Shown: in pieces, positions 2,439-35,196 of the stretch | Layout of the letters: each line of letters opens with the position of its first letter | How positions within the stretch are numbered: the stretch's first letter is position 1 | DNA from: a virus | Virus record (IMG/VR): IMGVR_UViG_3300005613_000203 | Location: 1 to 36,427 of that record | DNA: 36,427 bases | Strand: one strand, 5' to 3' | Program-made: the position numbers and the translations under genes | Notes under the pieces: model-generated | Told to the model about the DNA's origin: nothing | Seen by the model: only the letters and a program-made list of their open reading frames with translations | Database searches by the model: none

Positions 2439-3185
2439 ATGGAACTCAACCTATTCCAACATTTTTCCACACTGTTTGAAGATCTTTACCAAAAGATAGA
2501 AGCACTCGCCAAAACAAAAAACGTCGCTCCTGAGCCAAAACGGTCGCCCGAGATCAATGAATTAACCACCGCTCTCGCTAAAGCTCAGTCCGAAATGAAA
2601 TCAGCTGACCTCAACAAGACAAACCCCTACTTCAAAAGCTCATACGCTGACCTTCAATCAATCGTTAGCGCTTCACGAGGCCCCTTAACCAAAAACGGAC
2701 TATCCGTTACCCAACAACTCTACGACGAATATGACGCATCATGGCTCATCACCACCCTCTGGCATACCTCAGGCCAATGGATCACCTCAAAACGACGCGT
2801 CGTACCCGCTAAAAACGATATTCAAACCATCAGCTCCCATACCACATACCTCAAACGTATGTCTTATGCCTCATTAATTGGTGTCGTAACCGGCGAAGAC
2901 GACGATGACGGAGAAGCCGCTGTCGCCACACAACGCGAAACATACGCCAAAGGCGTTGCCCTTAACACCAAATACAACCCAAAAGAAAATAAAACAGAAA
3001 TTGTGAGCAAAGATCAATTAGACGAACTTGAGTACGAACTCGCCGAATACCCCGATATTGCAGAAATGGTACTCGATGGCCTCAAACTACAAAACCTCGC
3101 CGACATGCCAAAAGAAAAATTTATGACCGCCGTTAAACGTATCCGAGAAATAAAAGATCTCCGCAATAACGGACCCCGAAACTAA
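2439..3185 (+). CDS. erf: ERF-family single-strand annealing recombinase
   Basis: INELTTALAKAQSEMKSADLNKTNPYFKSSYADLQSIVSASRGPLTKNGLSVTQ matches the conserved ERF core (K-x-NP-[YF]F-KS-xYA-xL). An acidic linker and a C-terminal tail follow. Confidence 0.8.
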   Translation: MELNLFQHFSTLFEDLYQKIEALAKTKNVAPEPKRSPEINELTTALAKAQSEMKSADLNKTNPYFKSSYADLQSIVSASRGPLTKNGLSVTQQLYDEYDASWLITTLWHTSGQWITSKRRVVPAKNDIQTISSHTTYLKRMSYASLIGVVTGEDDDDGEAAVATQRETYAKGVALNTKYNPKENKTEIVSKDQLDELEYELAEYPDIAEMVLDGLKLQNLADMPKEKFMTAVKRIREIKDLRNNGPRN

Positions 3186-3194
3186 AGGAACCTC

Positions 3195-3419
3195 ATGGAT
3201 AATGTGATATTTCGTCATTCAATACCCAGCCACCTTGACGAAGCTGCCATCGGAACCCAATGCCACGTCAAACGACCAACCGGATTCACCGACGTCTATA
3301 TACAACTCGGCAAAGAACCCAACCACCCAAAATGGACCTTTATCGACTCCTTCAGCGATCACCTTACCACCAAAAAAATCATAAAACTTATCAAAAATCG
3401 TCTCCTAACACAACACTGA
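3195..3419 (+). CDS. Hypothetical protein
   Basis: 74-aa ORF directly after erf with AAGGAA upstream. The overlapping 3260..3487 ORF is judged spurious. Confidence 0.4.
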   Translation: MDNVIFRHSIPSHLDEAAIGTQCHVKRPTGFTDVYIQLGKEPNHPKWTFIDSFSDHLTTKKIIKLIKNRLLTQH

Positions 3420-3424
3420 GACAC

Positions 3425-3458
3425 GTGGGCTGCTCTGTAATGCTGGAGAGCAGCCCAC
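3425..3458 (+). terminator. 12-bp perfect stem hairpin at the end of the plus-strand early cassette
   Basis: GTGGGCTGCTCT-10 nt-AGAGCAGCCCAC, 6 nt after the stop at 3419. No clear U-tract. Confidence 0.5.
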
Positions 3459-3494
3459 ACCTAAAATCCACTCTCTATACTGCTTAATAGAGAC

Positions 3495-3522
3495 GGGGCC
3501 ATGGCAAAATAACCATGGCCCC
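3495..3522. terminator. 10-bp perfect stem hairpin in the convergent intergenic region
   Basis: GGGGCCATGG-caaaataa-CCATGGCCCC, with an A-rich plus-strand 3' flank (equivalently, a T-run 5' of the hairpin on the minus strand). Sits between the convergent transcription units. Confidence 0.4.
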
Positions 3523-3549
3523 AACAAAAAAGGAGTGTAAATGAAATCT

Positions 3550-3699
3550 CTAATCTACCAATTCTCCAATAAACTCTTTTCCACCTATTTCTATCACAGT
3601 TACCCCCTTTATTCTACTTTTTTTCATCTGCCACGTTAAAACACCCACACATAAACATAATCCTGCAATAAAACAAGCAAGCTTAACCTTTCTCTTCAT
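3550..3699 (-). CDS. Small membrane protein (49 aa, one N-terminal TM segment)
   Basis: Manual translation gives MKRKVKLACFIAGLCLCVGVLTWQMKKSRIKGVTVIEIGGKEFIGELVD*. ATGA start/stop overlap with the upstream ORF. Confidence 0.4.
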   Translation of the reverse strand: MKRKVKLACFIAGLCLCVGVLTWQMKKSRIKGVTVIEIGGKEFIGELVD

Positions 3700-3851
3700 G
3701 CGCTAAACAACCCCGTTTCTGAATCATACGTATTACCAACCTGCGCATTCTCACTCTGCACAACCGTGTGATTGCGCGGAGCCACAAACTCCTGATCAGT
3801 AATAATAACGTTAACTACTTTATTTTCACTATCAATAATCACATATCTCAT
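3696..3851 (-). CDS. Small hypothetical protein (51 aa), paralogue of 3848..4069
   Basis: Manual translation gives MRYVIIDSENKVVNVIITDQEFVAPRNHTVVQSENAQVGNTYDSETGLFSA*. ATGA overlaps at both ends. Shares the NKV[VI]NV motif with its neighbour. Confidence 0.45.
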   Translation of the reverse strand: MRYVIIDSENKVVNVIITDQEFVAPRNHTVVQSENAQVGNTYDSETGLFSA

Positions 3852-4069
3852 ATTTCTTCCTCTTCCTCTGGCTCGGGATCTGGCGCTGTTCTATCAATAG
3901 GCGTGATCACTTCGAGAATCGGATCCCAGTCATCATCTATATTTGCACTATCAGACTGAACCATAATCGTTCCAGCCTTGGGCAGATATTCTCTCCCATC
4001 CCAAAGAGAAACGTTTATAACCTTATTTGTTGTTGTGTTGATATGTGCATATTTTTTGATTTCACTCAT
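3848..4069 (-). CDS. Small hypothetical protein with acidic C-terminus
   Basis: 73-aa ORF immediately downstream of the fibre gene. Confidence 0.5.
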   Translation of the reverse strand: MSEIKKYAHINTTTNKVINVSLWDGREYLPKAGTIMVQSDSANIDDDWDPILEVITPIDRTAPDPEPEEEEEI

Positions 4070-4072
4070 TGC

Positions 4073-5164
4073 TTACCCTAAATATTCAATAATCCATACT
4101 TCACCACGCGCACCAGTACCACCAGCACCAGAATTGGTTCCATTTAATGAACCTCCTCCTCCACCGCCGCTACCGCCGGGAGCACCACCATCACCTCCCG
4201 TTCCAGCAGAACCACCAGTTGATTGACCTCCTCCACCGCCGCCGCCTGAGCCCATTGTAAGAAACTTAATCGTACCATAGGCGGCTGCTGCACCATTAGT
4301 ACCATTAATAGTGCCCGACTCTACACCACCAGTACCGCCGGCAACAAGAGTTCCACTCTCTCCAATAAGCGAAGCTGCGTCTCCACCTGTTTTTTCTGAC
4401 CCGCTATTTGCTCCTGCACCACCACCTGCAACACCTAAGACGCCTCCGTGGCCATAAAAATCATTTACGCTCGTAGCATCCAAATTGCTTCCTGCTCCTG
4501 CTTGCGCAACTTCTGGAGTGTTAGCGCGTGGAAAAATATTCGAAATAACTGCCCCTGCACCTGCTGTAGACGTTGTTGTTGTCCCTCCCAATCCATATAC
4601 ATACCGAGTGCTGGCACCTTGCACTACAGAAGTCATCGTAGAAATAACATCAACCGATGAGGCTCCTCCAGCTGTTCCATTATTCCCATTGGTATCATTT
4701 GCTGTTTGAACTGCTCCTCCAGCTCCGCCTGATCCAACCGTCACAGATTCACTTGCTGAAAAATTAGAAGCAGGCATAGTTACCCCCTTTAAAACAGAAG
4801 TAGATCCTCCGGCGCCACCACCGGCACTTCCACTTGCGCCTCTTCTTCCAGATCCTCCTCCACTGCCTCCTCCAATAAGAATGAGCTCTATCCATTGCGC
4901 ATTAGCGTCTTTTGTCCACGTTCCATTCGATGTAAATTGTGTAACTACTACACCACCACCGCCACCAGCTGCTGCCTGAAACGTTGGCGCACTTCCCGCA
5001 CCATTACTCGTTAATACATGTGTCGCTGTACCAACCGCCGTTGTTACTAAACTCGTGCCATCATAATAAACAACACCATCAGTAGTCGTCATCGACGTGG
5101 CATTCGTGCCACCCTTAGATATCTCTATTGGAATATTGCTATTTATCGCGTTCTTTGTCGCCAT
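4073..5164 (-). CDS. Glycine-rich tail fibre / receptor-binding protein
   Basis: N-terminus ISKGGTNATS...VTTAVGTATHVLTSNGAGSAPTF shares the fibre repeat motif. FTSNGTWTKDANAQWIELILIGGGSGGGSG is the widespread phage glycine-rich-domain signature. Confidence 0.65.
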   Translation of the reverse strand: MATKNAINSNIPIEISKGGTNATSMTTTDGVVYYDGTSLVTTAVGTATHVLTSNGAGSAPTFQAAAGGGGGVVVTQFTSNGTWTKDANAQWIELILIGGGSGGGSGRRGASGSAGGGAGGSTSVLKGVTMPASNFSASESVTVGSGGAGGAVQTANDTNGNNGTAGGASSVDVISTMTSVVQGASTRYVYGLGGTTTTSTAGAGAVISNIFPRANTPEVAQAGAGSNLDATSVNDFYGHGGVLGVAGGGAGANSGSEKTGGDAASLIGESGTLVAGGTGGVESGTINGTNGAAAAYGTIKFLTMGSGGGGGGGQSTGGSAGTGGDGGAPGGSGGGGGGSLNGTNSGAGGTGARGEVWIIEYLG

Positions 5165-24916: not shown

Positions 24917-25510
24917 TTAAGCTAATGTACAACGTAAGTTCATGATCCAAAGGTCATTCGTAATACGAGGGACCTCTGCAAACTTGTAGCCAACAGATGC
25001 ATTAAGTGCTAATGGGCCACTAAATACTGGTGGTAGATAAATGAAGCTTGCTGATGCACCATCTTGTTCGATACATGCATATGCTTCCATACCGACGCAG
25101 AAGATATTATAAACAGTCTTATTCAATAAAGATGCATTATCAGTCTTCGAACCAATTGATGACACGAGGAAACGAAGGTTTCCAATTGCGCCCCACTCAG
25201 AACGTAACGCGTTCATTGGTGATGGATACTGATTCTTTTGAATGAAACCAGCAACATTATCCAAATCTTTCGTTAAATCTGTATGAGCTAATGCAAAATA
25301 TGCATCACGAACCGGTGCGGTACCAAACTTATCTTCACCTTCGATGTTATCCATGATTGTATAGGCATCATTACCCAACAATGCACGAACAACTTCATCG
25401 CAATCATTGCGAGTCAATTCTGTTGGACTGTCGCCGTTGACACCGCCACTTGCATTAATGAAGCCAGCAGTTGCAGCTAACATATCACGTGTTAGTTGGT
25501 CTTCTGTTTG
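24917..25510 (-). CDS. Major capsid protein, exon 3 (197 aa + stop)
   Basis: QTEDQLTRDMLAATAGF...VRDAYFALAHTDLTKDL...NLRFLVSS...VYNIFCVGMEAYACIE... has an HK97-fold major capsid protein C-terminal pattern. The frame is closed by TAA 9 nt upstream of 25510. Confidence 0.75.
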   Translation of the reverse strand, partial: QTEDQLTRDMLAATAGFINASGGVNGDSPTELTRNDCDEVVRALLGNDAYTIMDNIEGEDKFGTAPVRDAYFALAHTDLTKDLDNVAGFIQKNQYPSPMNALRSEWGAIGNLRFLVSSIGSKTDNASLLNKTVYNIFCVGMEAYACIEQDGASASFIYLPPVFSGPLALNASVGYKFAEVPRITNDLWIMNLRCTLA

Positions 25511-25710
25511 CCTTTGTTACTCCCTTACGGGGGGCAAGTCATTTCTGCTTGCCTCAGAACCTTTCGTTGTTCTGACCGGACTATCACATCACCTTTTACA
25601 GTGTCTTCGGGTTTAGTCTCTCACGCTAGCTTTACCCTTGCGCCTTGTCGCCATAGCAAATGCCTTAGGCTTCCAAGTCAATTACCGAAGATTTATACTC
25701 CGCCAAATCA
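25511..25710 (-). ncRNA. Group I intron 2 (200 nt, no ORF)
   Basis: P1 pairs exon CUCCGU with GCGGAG (U.G at the splice site) and the intron ends in G. P3 is UCUUCGG/CCGAAGA. R-like GAGAGACUAAAC pairs with S-like AUAGUCC (P7). Has a CCUAAGGC-AUUU-GCUAUGG 11-nt receptor hairpin and a C-GAAA-G loop. Confidence 0.7.
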
Positions 25711-25752
25711 ACGGAGTGACACACCTAATCTCGCTGCAGCTTCATTGAGAAC
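25711..25752 (-). CDS. Major capsid protein, exon 2 (42-nt micro-exon, VLNEAAARLGVSLR)
   Basis: In frame with both flanking exons after the predicted splicing. DP-VL.E....LG continues the capsid-family pattern. Confidence 0.65.
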
Positions 25753-25995
25753 CATTCTGTTACTTTTGTGACCTATTTCTAGGCGGGTAGATCTTCTCAG
25801 CCTACCTCTCCAGGTTTCCTCTGGAGTTCAGAGTACCGCATACCTTGTTTTCAAGGCCCTTCTCGCTTACTACGTTCACCGTATATTTTTCTGGCATAAT
25901 CATCCTTTGAAAAATACTTCGGCCCTGTCGCCCTCAGCACTACCTGTTAGGGGTTCCAAGTCAATCAGAGAAGGTTTATAGACCCCATTCCTTCT
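25753..25995 (-). ncRNA. Group I intron 1 (243 nt, no ORF)
   Basis: P1 pairs exon GACCCU with GGGGUC (U.G at the splice site) and the intron ends in G. P3 is CCUUCUC/GAGAAGG. P8 is CCUUG-AAAA-CAAGG. P7 is AGUA/UACU plus G-C across a bulge. Has a CCUA-GAAA-UAGG hairpin and shares AUUGACUUGGAA with intron 2. Confidence 0.65.
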
Positions 25996-26307
25996 AGGGT
26001 CTTGATTTTGGAGAACTACTTGTTCATTTAATATTACGTGAGTTCCATACCAAGAGATCTTCGCATCTATGTCGACAGCGGATAGTTGTTGAGCAGGAGG
26101 TGTTACTCCTGTATTTCCTAAAGGCACCATTGCGGTGTCTAAGGAATTGTATCTTCTCATGCGCAACGTGTTACCACCATTACGGGGCATACGTTTTTTC
26201 ATTGCAGGTATTTTCATGATCATATTTGGTGTAGGTACACTCAAAAGTTTGTATGAAAACGACTGCTGAACGGGCGCCGGAAGAGACGTTGTTGTAGTGA
26301 TAGGCAT
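25996..26307 (-). CDS. Major capsid protein, exon 1 (104 aa)
   Basis: ...FSYKLLSVPTPNMIM...NGGNTLRMRRYNSLDTAMVPLGNTGVTPP...SWYGTHVILNEQVVLQNQDP has a capsid N-terminal pattern. The remaining 31 codons of the track ORF are intron read-through. Confidence 0.75.
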
Positions 26308-26495: not shown

Positions 26496-27146
26496 ATGAT
26501 AGGCAAGAAGTTTGGAAAATGGGAAGTTTTAGGTGAAGTAAAAATTGGCAAACCAGGAAAGCAGTACGAGTGTATGTGCGAGTGTGGAAATATTTCTGTA
26601 AAAAGTGGAACCGAGTTAAGGAAGGGAAGGGGCACGCAATGCCGAGAGTGCATGTATGCCACATTATACGATCCACAAAAAGAGATTGGTAAAAAATATG
26701 GGAAATGGACAATTATTAGGTTTATTGAGGTAAGAAGGAAGTTAATGCATTATGAAACCGAGTGTGAATGTGGACGTCGTTCTATACATGCGGCAGCTGA
26801 TCTAAGGTCCGGAAAATCAATTCAGTGTATTTATTGCCACAATAGACAAAACGCTCTTAAAAACACGAAGCATGGCATGCATACCAGTCCTATTTATCGC
26901 ATATGGCAGGCTATGGTACAGAGGTGCACTAACTCTAATGCTACTCACTATTATCGGTATGGTGGGCGCGGAATAAAGGTGTGTGATCGCTGGAGGGAAT
27001 CTTTTGAAAATTTCTATAAAGATATGGGCGATCGACCTGATGGTATGACAATTGATCGCATAGACAACAATGGTAATTACGAGCCAGCTAATTGTAGATG
27101 GATAACCCATAAAGAGAACTGTAGAAATCGTTATTATAAAAAATAA
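26496..27146 (+). CDS. Free-standing HNH-family homing endonuclease (opposite strand)
   Basis: Two N-terminal GKK[FY]GKW...ECxCECG...QCxxC modules. Followed by HG...YRIWQAMVQRC...YGGRGIKVCDRW..FENFYKDMG.RP.G.TIDRIDNNGNYEP.NCRW, a widespread phage endonuclease signature. Confidence 0.7.
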   Translation: MIGKKFGKWEVLGEVKIGKPGKQYECMCECGNISVKSGTELRKGRGTQCRECMYATLYDPQKEIGKKYGKWTIIRFIEVRRKLMHYETECECGRRSIHAAADLRSGKSIQCIYCHNRQNALKNTKHGMHTSPIYRIWQAMVQRCTNSNATHYYRYGGRGIKVCDRWRESFENFYKDMGDRPDGMTIDRIDNNGNYEPANCRWITHKENCRNRYYKK

Positions 27147-32751: not shown

Positions 32752-35196
32752 TTAGAAAAAATGGTTATTATCCTGAAACGCTGGAGGCAAATTCGCTTGA
32801 TTTCCATAAACCGTTTCTCTATAGCGACGCTCCAGAGCTTCAGGGTCAGCTGTATTTCTTAATTTAGGCAACGAAACGCAGAGGTAGCGAACACAATCGC
32901 AAAAATCGCTGTGACTATTGTGTAATGGTTTATTTTTATAAACCTGAAGTTTTGAGTCATATTCTTTTCGATAATCTCTAAGAGCCGTAATAAGCCGCTT
33001 ACATCTTTCTTCGTCAATATGTATACGAGGCAATGTTGTTCGTACGGCTTCAATGCCATCAATAATAGAAATGTTTGGTGCAATCATAAACTTTATTCCA
33101 AGCTGCGCAGCCTTTTCTAGTCGAGTAAGGCCACCAGCAGTAAATTCACGAACTTGTATGTCATGTGGGGCAATATGTTTACCCCAAGTGTAAGGCTTAG
33201 ATTGAATAACATTAATATAATGTTCAAGCCCAACCTCAGATTTATAATACATATCAATAATGTGGACTGCGTTTCCAATTACTTGAAACATGATAATAAC
33301 GGTCTGATCTCTCATGCCAAGATCCCAGGCAGTGTGAACAGGAAAGTTTGGCTCCCAGTCTACGGTGCCAACCTGATGATTAAGCTCCATATTATTAAGG
33401 TATTTAGCATAGTAAGCACCAAGGGCGCCAGTGGAGTAACTACAATAGTATTCTTGTCTGGCCATATCCTCTGATATCTCACCAGACTCAATCTCTCTGC
33501 GTATCTCTTCCTCGGAAATATGCTGTGTATCATTAACTGTTAAGAGGGTTGAATACCATTCATCTGGATTGTCTTGAGCTATCCGGTACAAAGTGTGGAA
33601 GAAGTTTTCCCCGTTAGGTGTACTTATGAAGATTATCCATCCGTTATTAGCCAATAAAATTGGCCGGATTGTTGGGTATACCTGTGGGTGCGAATAAGCT
33701 GCCTCACTCACAACAACTCCAACTGGATTTTGTCCACGCAAAGAATCGAACGATTCGCTGCCTAGAAAGATGATGCTTGATCCATTCTTGAATTCAATAA
33801 GCATCTGCTGTCTGTTAATACGCTTTATAAGTTCATCTGGAATAAAATCAGAAAAACGTCTTCCTTCGGAGGTCATTCCTTCAAATAAAACGCGACGTGC
33901 TTGTACAGCAGTTGGAAGCAGGTAATAGTAAAGGCCTACTCGCTTAAGCGCGGCTCGGATCATAAGGTTAAAACATACTACGTCCTTGCCGGAGTTATGA
34001 ACCAAGTATCCATTGGCAACAAAATTGTGATGGCGTGCCGTTTCTAGATCGTAAAGCTTTTCACGACCTAATTTTTCCACAGTATGACAAGAACGATAAC
34101 ATCCTTTAAAAACCTTCTGAGGATTTTTGGATTGTTTATTAACAAGGTTGAGCAACTCTTCTTGTTTTTTTTCTTTGCCATACACTCTCACCCCCGTTAA
34201 TAGTTTTTTTATTGCCCACCCCTTGCCTATCTTGATCTTCCAGTTACTCCCGCGTTCTAGATAAGGTATTTGCGAAAGAATGCCATACTTTCTCAGGAGC
34301 CAATACATATCCCATGCATACTCATAGGATCGACCGCAACTTAGTGTAACTTCTAATCCAGGGGGCACCTCACGACCTTCTATGGAAAAACCATTTTTAT
34401 GAATATAGATATTGCCATCACACGAGATAATTGCAGCAAAAAATCGCTGTATTGAATAAAAATCTAACGTCCATATATAAGAAGGAAGCCGCTGAATTGA
34501 TTTTTGTATATCGAGACCTTCGTTGCGAAAAAGTTCTTTAATCTCATTGCGAAAGGTTCCGCCTCCGCGCGTACCATTTGAAAAACCTAGGTCAAAGCCA
34601 CTCCCTTTGCGACGCCATAAGGGGATCACGTTAAACAGTTTTTGCGCAAGAAATGCAACCCGCTCAAGAATAACCATATTATTATTAGTAAACTTAGGTT
34701 GCTGGTACCCTACAACATATCCATCAGATAATAAGTATCCCCATAATTCAGCAAGATCGCCATCGCGCTTGTCCGATGATATTCCAGCATAATTAAGAAG
34801 TAAACGTCGCCATGTTATATCTTGAAGTTTATCCCATCGTACACAAGGAGTTGAGCTTGATGTATGCGCAAATTTATGATCATACGAAGTAATAAGTGGC
34901 AAATATCCAGGAGACCGCACCTTATACGTCTCCTTTTCTTCGGTTTGCCAAATATCTTTTACCACATCTTCAACAAACTTCTCACCATCCCAAGAAAGAA
35001 CGCGATCTCCAACCTTAATATCTTTAAGACACTTATAGGACCCGTTACTCATAGTTATATGAGCCTCTCCAGACAAACACCTGCGAGGTGCCACAATAAC
35101 CATTTTCTTATACCCAGACTCAAACGCACGGCAGATCTCGCGTTGGTATATTCTGGGCACGAAGCGATTAAGCTTGATTGTTGTCTCTATTCCCAT
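32752..35196 (-). CDS. terL: Terminase large subunit precursor (intein-containing; 452-aa extein)
   Basis: The exteins join as ...VIVAPRR|SGKDVV... (Walker A). The C-terminal nuclease-like region follows. Position after the small terminase. Confidence 0.8.
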   Translation of the reverse strand: MGIETTIKLNRFVPRIYQREICRAFESGYKKMVIVAPRRCLSGEAHITMSNGSYKCLKDIKVGDRVLSWDGEKFVEDVVKDIWQTEEKETYKVRSPGYLPLITSYDHKFAHTSSSTPCVRWDKLQDITWRRLLLNYAGISSDKRDGDLAELWGYLLSDGYVVGYQQPKFTNNNMVILERVAFLAQKLFNVIPLWRRKGSGFDLGFSNGTRGGGTFRNEIKELFRNEGLDIQKSIQRLPSYIWTLDFYSIQRFFAAIISCDGNIYIHKNGFSIEGREVPPGLEVTLSCGRSYEYAWDMYWLLRKYGILSQIPYLERGSNWKIKIGKGWAIKKLLTGVRVYGKEKKQEELLNLVNKQSKNPQKVFKGCYRSCHTVEKLGREKLYDLETARHHNFVANGYLVHNSGKDVVCFNLMIRAALKRVGLYYYLLPTAVQARRVLFEGMTSEGRRFSDFIPDELIKRINRQQMLIEFKNGSSIIFLGSESFDSLRGQNPVGVVVSEAAYSHPQVYPTIRPILLANNGWIIFISTPNGENFFHTLYRIAQDNPDEWYSTLLTVNDTQHISEEEIRREIESGEISEDMARQEYYCSYSTGALGAYYAKYLNNMELNHQVGTVDWEPNFPVHTAWDLGMRDQTVIIMFQVIGNAVHIIDMYYKSEVGLEHYINVIQSKPYTWGKHIAPHDIQVREFTAGGLTRLEKAAQLGIKFMIAPNISIIDGIEAVRTTLPRIHIDEERCKRLITALRDYRKEYDSKLQVYKNKPLHNSHSDFCDCVRYLCVSLPKLRNTADPEALERRYRETVYGNQANLPPAFQDNNHFF
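33994..35079 (-). mobile_element. Intein (362 aa) with LAGLIDADG homing endonuclease domain, inserted in the TerL Walker A loop
   Basis: Block A is CLSGEAHITM...VGDRVLS and block B is ITSYDHKF. LAGLIDADG motifs are LWGYLLSDGYVV and FFAAIISCDGNIY. C-terminus is YDLETARHHNFVANGYLVHN, followed by the +1 Ser. Confidence 0.85.

Follow-up and report, generated by a model that had tools for sequence, protein, structure and literature searches.

How does a phage obtain an intact major capsid protein from a gene that, as called, is broken into two open reading frames (ORFs)? This question is raised by positions 25,511 to 25,995 of the IMG/VR virus record IMGVR_UViG_3300005613_000203, a stretch of 36,427 nucleotides (nt) that is referred to below as the window. 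On the minus strand, which according to the ORF list holds nearly all genes in the capsid part of the window, the capsid gene is called as an ORF of 135 amino acids (aa) at 25900-26307(-) and an ORF of 188 aa at 24917-25483(-), about 0.4 kilobases (kb) apart. In the 135-aa ORF, capsid-like residues extend up to ...LQNQDP and are followed by a 31-codon read-through into the intervening sequence. The original prediction, made from the sequence alone, attributed the interruption to two tandem group I introns that flank a micro-exon. Our analysis leads to the same answer, namely that both insertions are very probably group I introns that are spliced.

The joined capsid gene is collinear with uninterrupted relatives

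When the three exons (312, 42 and 594 nt; Table 1) are joined, they encode a 315-aa protein, with no frameshift and no stop codon within the exons. The spliced product matches the PHROG 1357 major head protein (6.9e-31) and Pfam PF25209 Phage_capsid_4 (32.8 bits, cut-off 27), and its homologues carry the source name 'N4-gp56 family major capsid protein'; on these family matches, the host gene is predicted to encode a major capsid protein (MCP) of the N4-gp56 type with the HK97 fold. A search of 5.8 billion proteins yielded 2584 relatives of the 315-aa product, the best 120 of which are all uninterrupted, 313-316 aa long and 80-86% identical to the query at 99-100% coverage. As originally anticipated, the alignment of the product with 18 uninterrupted homologues is free of gaps at both junctions. 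Among these 19 sequences, residues 102-108 and 111-122, a span that takes in the 14-aa micro-exon and its flanks, are invariant, residue 109 is A, C or S, and residue 110 is nearly invariant; thus, both introns reside in the most conserved stretch of the protein. Furthermore, in an intron-free relative (L121, 86% identity), the capsid gene is 948 nt long, i.e. 312+42+594.

Protein alignment alone would allow a shift of each junction by 1-2 bases. The joint presence of a U before the 5' splice site and a G at the end of the intron is satisfied only by the junction positions given in Table 1, which are those of the original prediction. The two called ORFs, the ...LQNQDP end and the read-through were likewise found where they had been placed, as were P1, P3, P8 and the last G of intron 1 and P1, P3, P7, the receptor-like hairpin, the C-GAAA-G loop and the last G of intron 2. 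The earlier reading is supported down to the splice sites themselves, and it holds for most of the assigned helices.

Covariation supports a pseudoknotted group I core

Both introns contain the string UAUAAA-N7-U(G/A)AUUGACUUGGAA, which occurs twice in the window and in none of 100 shuffles. An exact scan of IMG/VR with TATAAA-N7-TRATTGACTTGGAA identified at least 119 viral contigs (L001-L119) with copies of the same intron family. We aligned 36 non-redundant ORF-less copies, including the two window introns (alignment A2), and defined the structure for pair counting from anchors, with 7 base pairs in P3, 4 each in P4, P5 and P6, 6 in P7 and 3 in P8; the scope of this analysis is P3 to P8, MAFFT leaving the strands of P9 and of the 3' hairpins out of register between the two subtypes. 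Over the 28 pairs, standard pairs occupy 97.3% of the cells, compared to 36-46% in slid controls, in which the 3' partners are moved by 1-3 columns. Changes on both sides were observed in 19 of the 28 pairs, with covariation in all seven pairs of P3, and the covariation score was matched by 0 of 500 shuffles. The P7 pair 170/213 appears as AU, UA, GC and CG, and the pair 163/218 as AU, GC and UA. Pair 165/217, the putative site of guanosine binding, is G-C in each of the 36 sequences, with the G at 25873 in intron 1 and at 25619 in intron 2, and is accompanied by a bulged base at column 164, a signature at the level of sequence only. P7 crosses P3 to form a pseudoknot, as in group I introns, and both window introns fit every helix. 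The core covariation, together with P1, P10 and the terminal G (see below), bears out the proposed identity of the two tandem insertions.

A covariance model (R1) was built from 34 relatives (alignment A3), with the window sequences excluded, and the window was searched with filters off. R1 matched intron 2 at 25574-25703 (110 bits, E = 1.5e-22) and intron 1 at 25826-25986 (77.8 bits, E = 2.2e-15); elsewhere in the window, nothing scored above 10 bits or better than E = 2.4. In intron 2, the receptor motif in P5 and the GAAA loops of P9 and P9.1 are consistent with the usual tertiary contact of the L9-P5 type.

The boundaries of the insertions lack the features of group II introns (5' GUGYG, 3' AY): the introns start with AGAAGG and UGAUUU and end with AAUG and AAGG. 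Group II introns have a six-domain structure and are usually longer than 400 nt, compared to 243 and 200 nt here, and no Rfam group II model matched the whole window at the gathering score or the region 25400-26100 at E<=10.

Several points weigh against this interpretation or limit its support. Kinship among the family members inflates the significance obtained by shuffling. It is therefore safer to rely on the slid control and on the number of compensatory pair types, which agree in support of the core. P4 and part of J3/4 give no covariation support because they were fixed by the collecting motif. The family has no P2 and no P7.1/P7.2. Intron 1 has an additional bulged U (column 166, position 25872) next to the presumed guanosine-binding pair. 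Splicing and catalysis in vivo are what we infer from the sequences. Finally, the Rfam group I model RF00028 (Intron_gpI), which the original prediction had put forward as a check on the minus strand of this region, yields no match at the gathering score across the window and none at E<=10 on 25400-26100. The same model misses every copy of this intron family in 11 related loci (E<=1), where it produces only sub-threshold matches to other introns of these genes (26-32 bits, cut-off 50). Because this control shows that RF00028 does not reach the family, we discount the negative and read it as a sensitivity limit of one model over a diverse class, not as evidence against group I introns; the family-specific R1 serves in its place.

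The sub-threshold RF00028 matches are located at L033 127-1408 and L016 2748-2958. The L016 match overlaps the R1 core at 2789-2941, and one L033 match (919-1107) overlaps that at 936-1089, which suggests that these two are divergent copies of the same family. The remaining two L033 matches may represent another intron type; L033 appears to hold four tandem introns.

Exon-intron pairings covary at both splice sites

In both introns, P1 places a U.G pair at the 5' splice site. Across the family, 52 of 62 ORF-less copies have a 6/6 complement of the internal guide no more than 34 nt upstream, where by our own estimate about 8% would be expected by chance. Exon and guide change together: at site 2, CUGCGU/GCGCAG in L002, L104 and L109 corresponds to CUCCGU/GCGGAG, and at site 1, L110 has GAUCCU/GGGAUC. 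The last exon base is U in every intron-bearing allele; among intron-free alleles, CCT is found at codon 104 in 29/80 (36%) and CGT at codon 118 in 53/81 (65%).

At the 3' side, the third base of a Val codon, a synonymous position, covaries with the guide extension that forms P10 among 21 site-1 copies (GUA/UAU, GUU/AAU, GUUC/GAAC). In intron 1, the P10 strand GGAAU directly adjoins the guide on its 5' side. All 21 site-1 copies end in G, and the site-2 orthologues also keep the final G, with variable bases before it (AAGG, AAUG, AAAAG, ACUG, AUUG).

The micro-exon evolves as protein-coding sequence

The layout of intron, 42-nt exon and intron, which had been considered unusual, was also found in at least six further viral contigs (L002, L019, L059, L087, L104 and L109). 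In these six contigs, the micro-exon shows many synonymous differences and encodes VLNE(C/A)A(A/I)RLGVSLR, with only two amino acid substitutions, A/C at position 5 and A/I at position 7 (the latter in L104). As judged from these comparisons, this pattern shows selection at the protein level. The 14-aa micro-exon has neither a start codon nor a ribosome-binding site of its own. Conservation, at the protein level, of 14 codons that lack a start and are enclosed between ribozyme-like sequences would be hard to explain unless they are spliced into the message.

A variant P7 and a remnant of an endonuclease gene in intron 1

P7 of intron 1 reads AACGUAGUA/UACUCU, compared to AACGACUA/UAGUCU, i.e. 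a C-G pair is swapped for G-C and an extra U is present beside the invariant G-C pair. A variant scan found the same P7 in at least nine further introns that differ in P3, in P8 and in insertion site. Thus, the odd P7 is a conserved trait of a subfamily rather than a sign of decay, and the C-G/G-C swap adds one more compensatory change in favor of P7.

Long copies of the family carry LAGLIDADG genes, in the manner of mobile group I introns. The single-motif LAGLIDADG ORFs (about 160-180 aa) are antisense and located in P6, and the double-motif ones (about 330 aa) are located in the P1 loop in the sense orientation and continue into the ribozyme core; the antisense ORF of L021 matches Pfam LAGLIDADG_1. 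The P6 loop of intron 1 contains CAAAGGAUGAUUAUGCCAG, the reverse complement of which encodes WHNHPLK, the C-terminus of the antisense LAGLIDADG ORFs, as seen by comparison with the intact C-termini in L021 (...RWHNHPLKNPSPLSP) and L005 (...RFHLHPLKQ*). The retention of these last codons suggests that intron 1 lost its endonuclease gene by deletion. According to the ORF list, no ORF lies within either window intron except for the exon 1 read-through, and an intron-encoded homing endonuclease gene, the mark of a mobile intron, is found in neither. The introns were thus correctly described as ORF-less in that neither now has an ORF of its own, a description to be qualified by the antisense LAGLIDADG remnant in intron 1. 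With no endonuclease gene and only this 19-nt remnant, the window copies are best viewed as non-autonomous derivatives.

For the conserved AAAGGAUGAUUAUGCCAG in the P6 element of intron 1, a different reading, in which it supplies the ribosome-binding site and start codon to a sense ORF, was rejected: the sense ORFs have no family match, and the sequence encodes the C-terminus of antisense LAGLIDADG genes. As a separate observation, the P1-loop LAGLIDADG ORFs of L010, L040, L042, L057, L062 and L104 read into the core (...YGVYKPSLIDLEA...), and they do so in the frame of the 31-codon read-through of the 135-aa ORF in the window.

A model of splicing and the alternatives

In the capsid transcript, each intron RNA is predicted to fold into a P3-P8 core with the P3/P7 pseudoknot and three 3' hairpins. 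The internal guides would pair with the last six exon bases (GACCCU/GGGGUC and CUCCGU/GCGGAG), so that U.G falls at the 5' splice site; cleavage after this U would be carried out by a free guanosine docked at the invariant G-C pair in P7. The terminal G of the intron would then occupy the same site, with the next exon held by P10 (GUUCU/GGAAU and CAAA/UUUG, respectively), and the exons would be ligated. Each intron would be spliced independently through the standard group I pathway, and the removal of both would leave a continuous 948-nt frame for the 315-aa N4-gp56-type capsid protein. Because each intron has its own guide, both ends of the micro-exon would be held, the 5' end through P10 of intron 1 and the 3' end through P1 of intron 2. 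If the introns mis-paired with each other, the micro-exon would be left out without a change of frame, but the difference between the two guides suggests that this would not happen often. Splicing would have to be efficient, since hundreds of capsid subunits are required by the phage. The ancestor of intron 1 probably carried a LAGLIDADG gene in P6, in antisense, of which a deletion has left only the last codons. Both introns may be regarded as selfish elements that came to lie in this most conserved part of the capsid gene either by descent or by homing.

The lack of a homing endonuclease gene in both introns, the deletion scar in intron 1 and the unusual P7 of this intron, with its extra bulged U, could be taken to mark the insertions as group I relics that have lost the ability to splice, and the capsid gene as a pseudogene of a defective or dying phage genome. 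We consider this very unlikely, given that both introns have kept all core helices intact, as well as P1, P10 and the terminal G, that the P7 variant is kept in at least nine diverse introns, that the same layout is present in six other contigs, with the micro-exon and the flanking exons under protein-level selection, and that the exons are free of frameshifts and stop codons. It is more improbable still, to the point of being hardly credible, that the interruptions are handled by something other than group I splicing, be it translational bypassing, DNA-level excision of a small mobile element, or separate synthesis of polypeptides that then assemble. Such a scheme can appeal to the lack of a match to RF00028, the sole curated group I model, and to the N-terminal ORF, which could be translated as a 135-aa product. 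However, the gaps of 243 and 200 nt far exceed known bypass gaps (50 nt in T4 gene 60), the 14 residues of the micro-exon could not be produced on their own, the boundaries have no group II features, and the combination of a pseudoknotted core with covariation between guides and exon codons is explained only by recognition of the splice sites at the RNA level.

A further alternative concerns mobility. In collaborative homing, a scheme put forward for the cyanophage psbA intron and F-CphI, a free-standing endonuclease mobilizes an intron without an ORF. A gene for a free-standing HNH endonuclease, the sole gene of the block on the opposite (plus) strand, is inserted 189 nt upstream of the capsid gene, with a peptidase_M15-like gene on its other side, and is absent at this position in the intron-free L121. 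However, 8 of 80 intron-free loci (about 10%) and 7 of the 119 listed intron-bearing loci have an HNH homologue at that position, i.e. there is no enrichment and hence no association between the HNH gene and the introns. Moreover, the HNH protein shows no similarity to the ORFs of the intron family, being unrelated to its LAGLIDADG genes. Mobilization of the ORF-less introns by this endonuclease is therefore, in our view, improbable.

The intron family is concentrated in capsid genes

The family copies have in common R-like and S-like elements (GUGAACGACUAAGU or GUGAGAGACUAAAC; AUGCGAUAGUCYG) and a 3' end of the form ...GUAACA...G; P5, P6 and P8 are variable. Among the 119 matches listed, 74 are in the N4-gp56-type capsid family (32-86% identity, mostly split genes), and another 27 are in a different major head protein gene (PHROG 9953, 9e-98). 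Capsid genes thus account for 101 of these 119 matches; the two MCP families have no detectable sequence similarity. In the matches listed, the insertion points are spread over about 15 positions of the ~950-nt capsid gene (Table 1). R1 finds two or three cores in many of these capsid genes and six in L083. The six L083 matches (2529-4439) fall within ~2 kb of one capsid gene, and some of the apparent exons are only ~20 nt long.

The capsid family is represented in at least 578 IMG/VR contigs, and the best 80 of these are uninterrupted, indicating that the intron-bearing state is a minority; this sample is biased to uninterrupted genes, as one search peptide spans site 1, and yields no intron frequency. 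A scan of 185,579 species genomes produced 8 matches, all on contigs of metagenome-assembled genomes with inconsistent taxonomy and with no host signal. Against cultured phages, megablast of the capsid region found nothing, and tblastn found capsid homologues at no more than 29% identity; for the portal protein, matches reached no more than 26%. With matches this distant, the data point to no cultured relative and to no host. The introns themselves, compared to cultured phages with blastn, gave only short matches, to Roseobacter phage CRP-118 and a Desulfovibrio phage. The family is thus nearly absent both from the species genomes and from cultured phages, and among isolates it is essentially without annotation. 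In CRP-118 (OR420741.1, 35056-35455; L122), the intron-core match falls in a 400-nt unannotated gap between two coding sequences annotated as 'ribonucleotide reductase'; this gap probably represents a group I intron that escaped annotation in this cultured phage.

The capsid gene is miscalled as fragments here and in at least 74 related viral contigs, and a standard Rfam scan would not flag the cause; the motif and R1 recover the introns and the true 315-aa protein. Given the very high late expression of the capsid, the presence of two introns in one capsid gene, and up to six in relatives, implies fast and reliable ribozymes of ~190-240 nt, and such ribozymes could serve as minimal group I scaffolds. 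The family also provides a natural set for the study of intron gain, endonuclease loss and choice of insertion site within one gene. The compact, P2-less family and its concentration in capsid genes appear to be undescribed in the literature searched, and may fall within the 2025 subtype models cited in PMC12880540. That the introns sample an undescribed compact P2-less group I subclass specialized in phage capsid genes is a tentative idea that we rate as unlikely but worth stating. Should it be correct, the intron density in the most highly expressed late gene could reflect a role in competition between co-infecting phages or in the timing of capsid production, rather than neutral parasitism; the intron endonuclease of PhiPA3 has been shown to act in competition between co-infecting phages (PMC11620839).

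Feature coordinates and other elements of the genome

The coordinates of the capsid gene, of the intron elements and of the HNH gene are collected in Table 1. In addition, a 91-aa ORF with a TTG start (25496-25771, plus strand) spans the micro-exon and intron 2 in antisense; nothing supports this ORF, which is probably due to chance. The ORF of the large terminase (TerL; 32752-35196, minus strand, 814 aa) has terminase homology limited to residues ~400-783. Pfam Intein_splicing (6.9e-10) matches over residues 49-401, together with a LAGLIDADG_3 signal, and on these domain matches TerL appears to carry an intein with a homing endonuclease. Altogether, at least four selfish elements are located within 10 kb of this phage.

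Table 1 Features of the interrupted capsid gene, its two introns and the adjacent endonuclease gene.
Feature	Position	Strand	Details
Capsid gene, exon 1	26307-25996	-	312 nt, codons 1-104, 3' end ...CAA GAC CCU
Intron 1	25995-25753	-	243 nt
Capsid gene, micro-exon (exon 2)	25752-25711	-	42 nt, codons 105-118, VLNEAAARLGVSLR
Intron 2	25710-25511	-	200 nt
Capsid gene, exon 3	25510-24917	-	594 nt, codons 119-315 and stop
Intron 1, P1	26001-25996 / 25986-25981	-	exon GACCCU / internal guide GGGGUC
Intron 1, P10 strand	25991-25987	-	GGAAU; partner, first 5 nt of micro-exon, GUUCU
Intron 1, UAUAAA	25980-25975	-	
Intron 1, P3	25974-25968 / 25864-25858	-	CCUUCUC / GAGAAGG
Intron 1, P4	25960-25957 / 25927-25924	-	CUUG / CAGG
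Intron 1, P5	25953-25931	-	
Intron 1, P6	25923-25920 / 25881-25878	-	GCCG / CGGU
Intron 1, endonuclease-gene remnant	25891-25909	+	P6 loop, 19 nt, encodes ..WHNHPLK
Intron 1, P7	25876-25868 / 25835-25830	-	AACGUAGUA / UACUCU
Intron 1, P8	25857-25842	-	GCCUUGAAAACAAGGU
Intron 1, P9 (3' hairpin)	25826-25808	-	
Intron 1, P9.1 (3' hairpin)	25806-25786	-	
Intron 1, P9.2 (3' hairpin)	25783-25772	-	
Intron 1, terminal G	25753	-	
Intron 2, P1	25716-25711 / 25703-25698	-	exon CUCCGU / internal guide GCGGAG
Intron 2, P10 strand	25707-25704	-	UUUG; partner, first 4 nt of exon 3, CAAA
Intron 2, UAUAAA	25697-25692	-	
Intron 2, P3	25691-25685 / 25610-25604	-	UCUUCGG / CCGAAGA
Intron 2, P4	25677-25674 / 25647-25644	-	CUUG / CAAG
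Intron 2, P5 hairpin	25670-25650	-	11-nt receptor motif, GCCUAAGGCAUUUGCUAUGGC
Intron 2, P6	25643-25640 / 25626-25623	-	GCGC / GCGU
Intron 2, P7	25622-25614 / 25583-25578	-	GAGAGACUA / UAGUCC
Intron 2, P8	25603-25590	-	
Intron 2, P9	25574-25555	-	C-GAAA-G loop
Intron 2, P9.1	25553-25533	-	GAAA loop
Intron 2, P9.2	25531-25522	-	
Intron 2, terminal G	25511	-	
Free-standing HNH endonuclease gene	26496-27146	+	PHROG 374, 1.8e-65
Insertion positions in the capsid family			rough residue positions in the window protein: 25, 52, 79, 88, 97, 104, 118, 129-136, 144, 147, 180, 186, 194, 228, 266, 275, 300

Comparison with known systems

The rarity of introns in the structural genes of phages was overstated in the original prediction. 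In mycobacteriophage LittleE, the capsid gene contains an 819-bp (base pair) group I intron with an HNH gene; N-terminal sequencing of the protein, together with RNA analysis, proved that this intron is spliced (Pope et al. 2013, PMC3706429), and the same paper cites a capsid-gene intron of lactococcal phage Tuc2009. As in the window, the group I intron of LittleE interrupts the major capsid gene, the joined parts are collinear with intron-free relatives, and the endonuclease gene is antisense to the capsid gene, like the LAGLIDADG genes in the relatives of intron 1. LittleE differs in having one intron with an HNH gene, compared to two ORF-less introns of 243 and 200 nt placed 42 nt apart, and in belonging to another intron family and phage lineage; splicing is proven there and predicted here.

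Among crAss-like phages, four insertions have been described that break one MCP gene into five fragments, and three of these insertions encode group I intron-type domains (Yutin et al. 2021, PMC7886860). The Zeta/Delta crAss-like phages share with the window the presence of several group I introns in one MCP gene of uncultured phages, as well as TerL inteins. However, the introns of the crAss-like phages were recognized by endonuclease domains in genomes of 145-192 kb, whereas those of the window, with its genome of ~36 kb, are ORF-less and were recognized by RNA structure, and the MCP families are unrelated.

Several introns in one gene are also known from phage Twort, where orf142 has three group I introns and exon skipping occurs (Landthaler and Shub 1999, as cited in PMC6669764). 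The common feature is a set of related, closely spaced group I introns in one phage gene. By this likeness, the small internal exon of the window might also be skipped, and the loss of the 42-nt exon would keep the frame. The Twort introns belong to subgroup IA2, with P2 and P7.1/P7.2, elements that the window family lacks.

In size, a phage parallel is provided by the Jug jumbo phages, which have ORF-less group I introns of ~206 nt in essential genes, with many copies per lineage; these introns were found with subtype covariance models, the split genes named include terL, nrdD and DNA polymerase, and splicing is backed by metatranscriptome reads for 37 of 76 predicted introns (PMC12880540). 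The likeness extends to the lack of an ORF, the location in essential phage genes and the presence of free-standing homing endonucleases nearby; the difference is that the Jug phages are gut jumbo phages with genomes of 360-402 kb.

Outside phages, introns of similar length are the compact IC3 introns of bacterial tRNA genes, such as those of Azoarcus tRNA-Ile (205 nt) and Anabaena tRNA-Leu (249 nt). The resemblance includes the length of ~200 nt, the lack of an ORF, an R/S-like P7 (AGAGACUA / UAGUC) and the stabilization of the fold by GAAA tetraloops with a canonical 11-nt receptor (CCUAAG...UAUGG). However, IC3 introns have P2, carry the receptor in P8 and are inserted in tRNA anticodon loops, whereas in the window family there is no P2, UAUAAA links P1 straight to P3, the receptor is in P5, three hairpins follow at the 3' side, and the insertion sites are in protein-coding phage genes.

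Thus, capsid-gene introns, multiple introns in one gene and ORF-less phage introns of ~200 nt have all been published, and the window case is not new in kind. Group I introns in phage structural genes being already established, the two introns described here extend known biology rather than change it.

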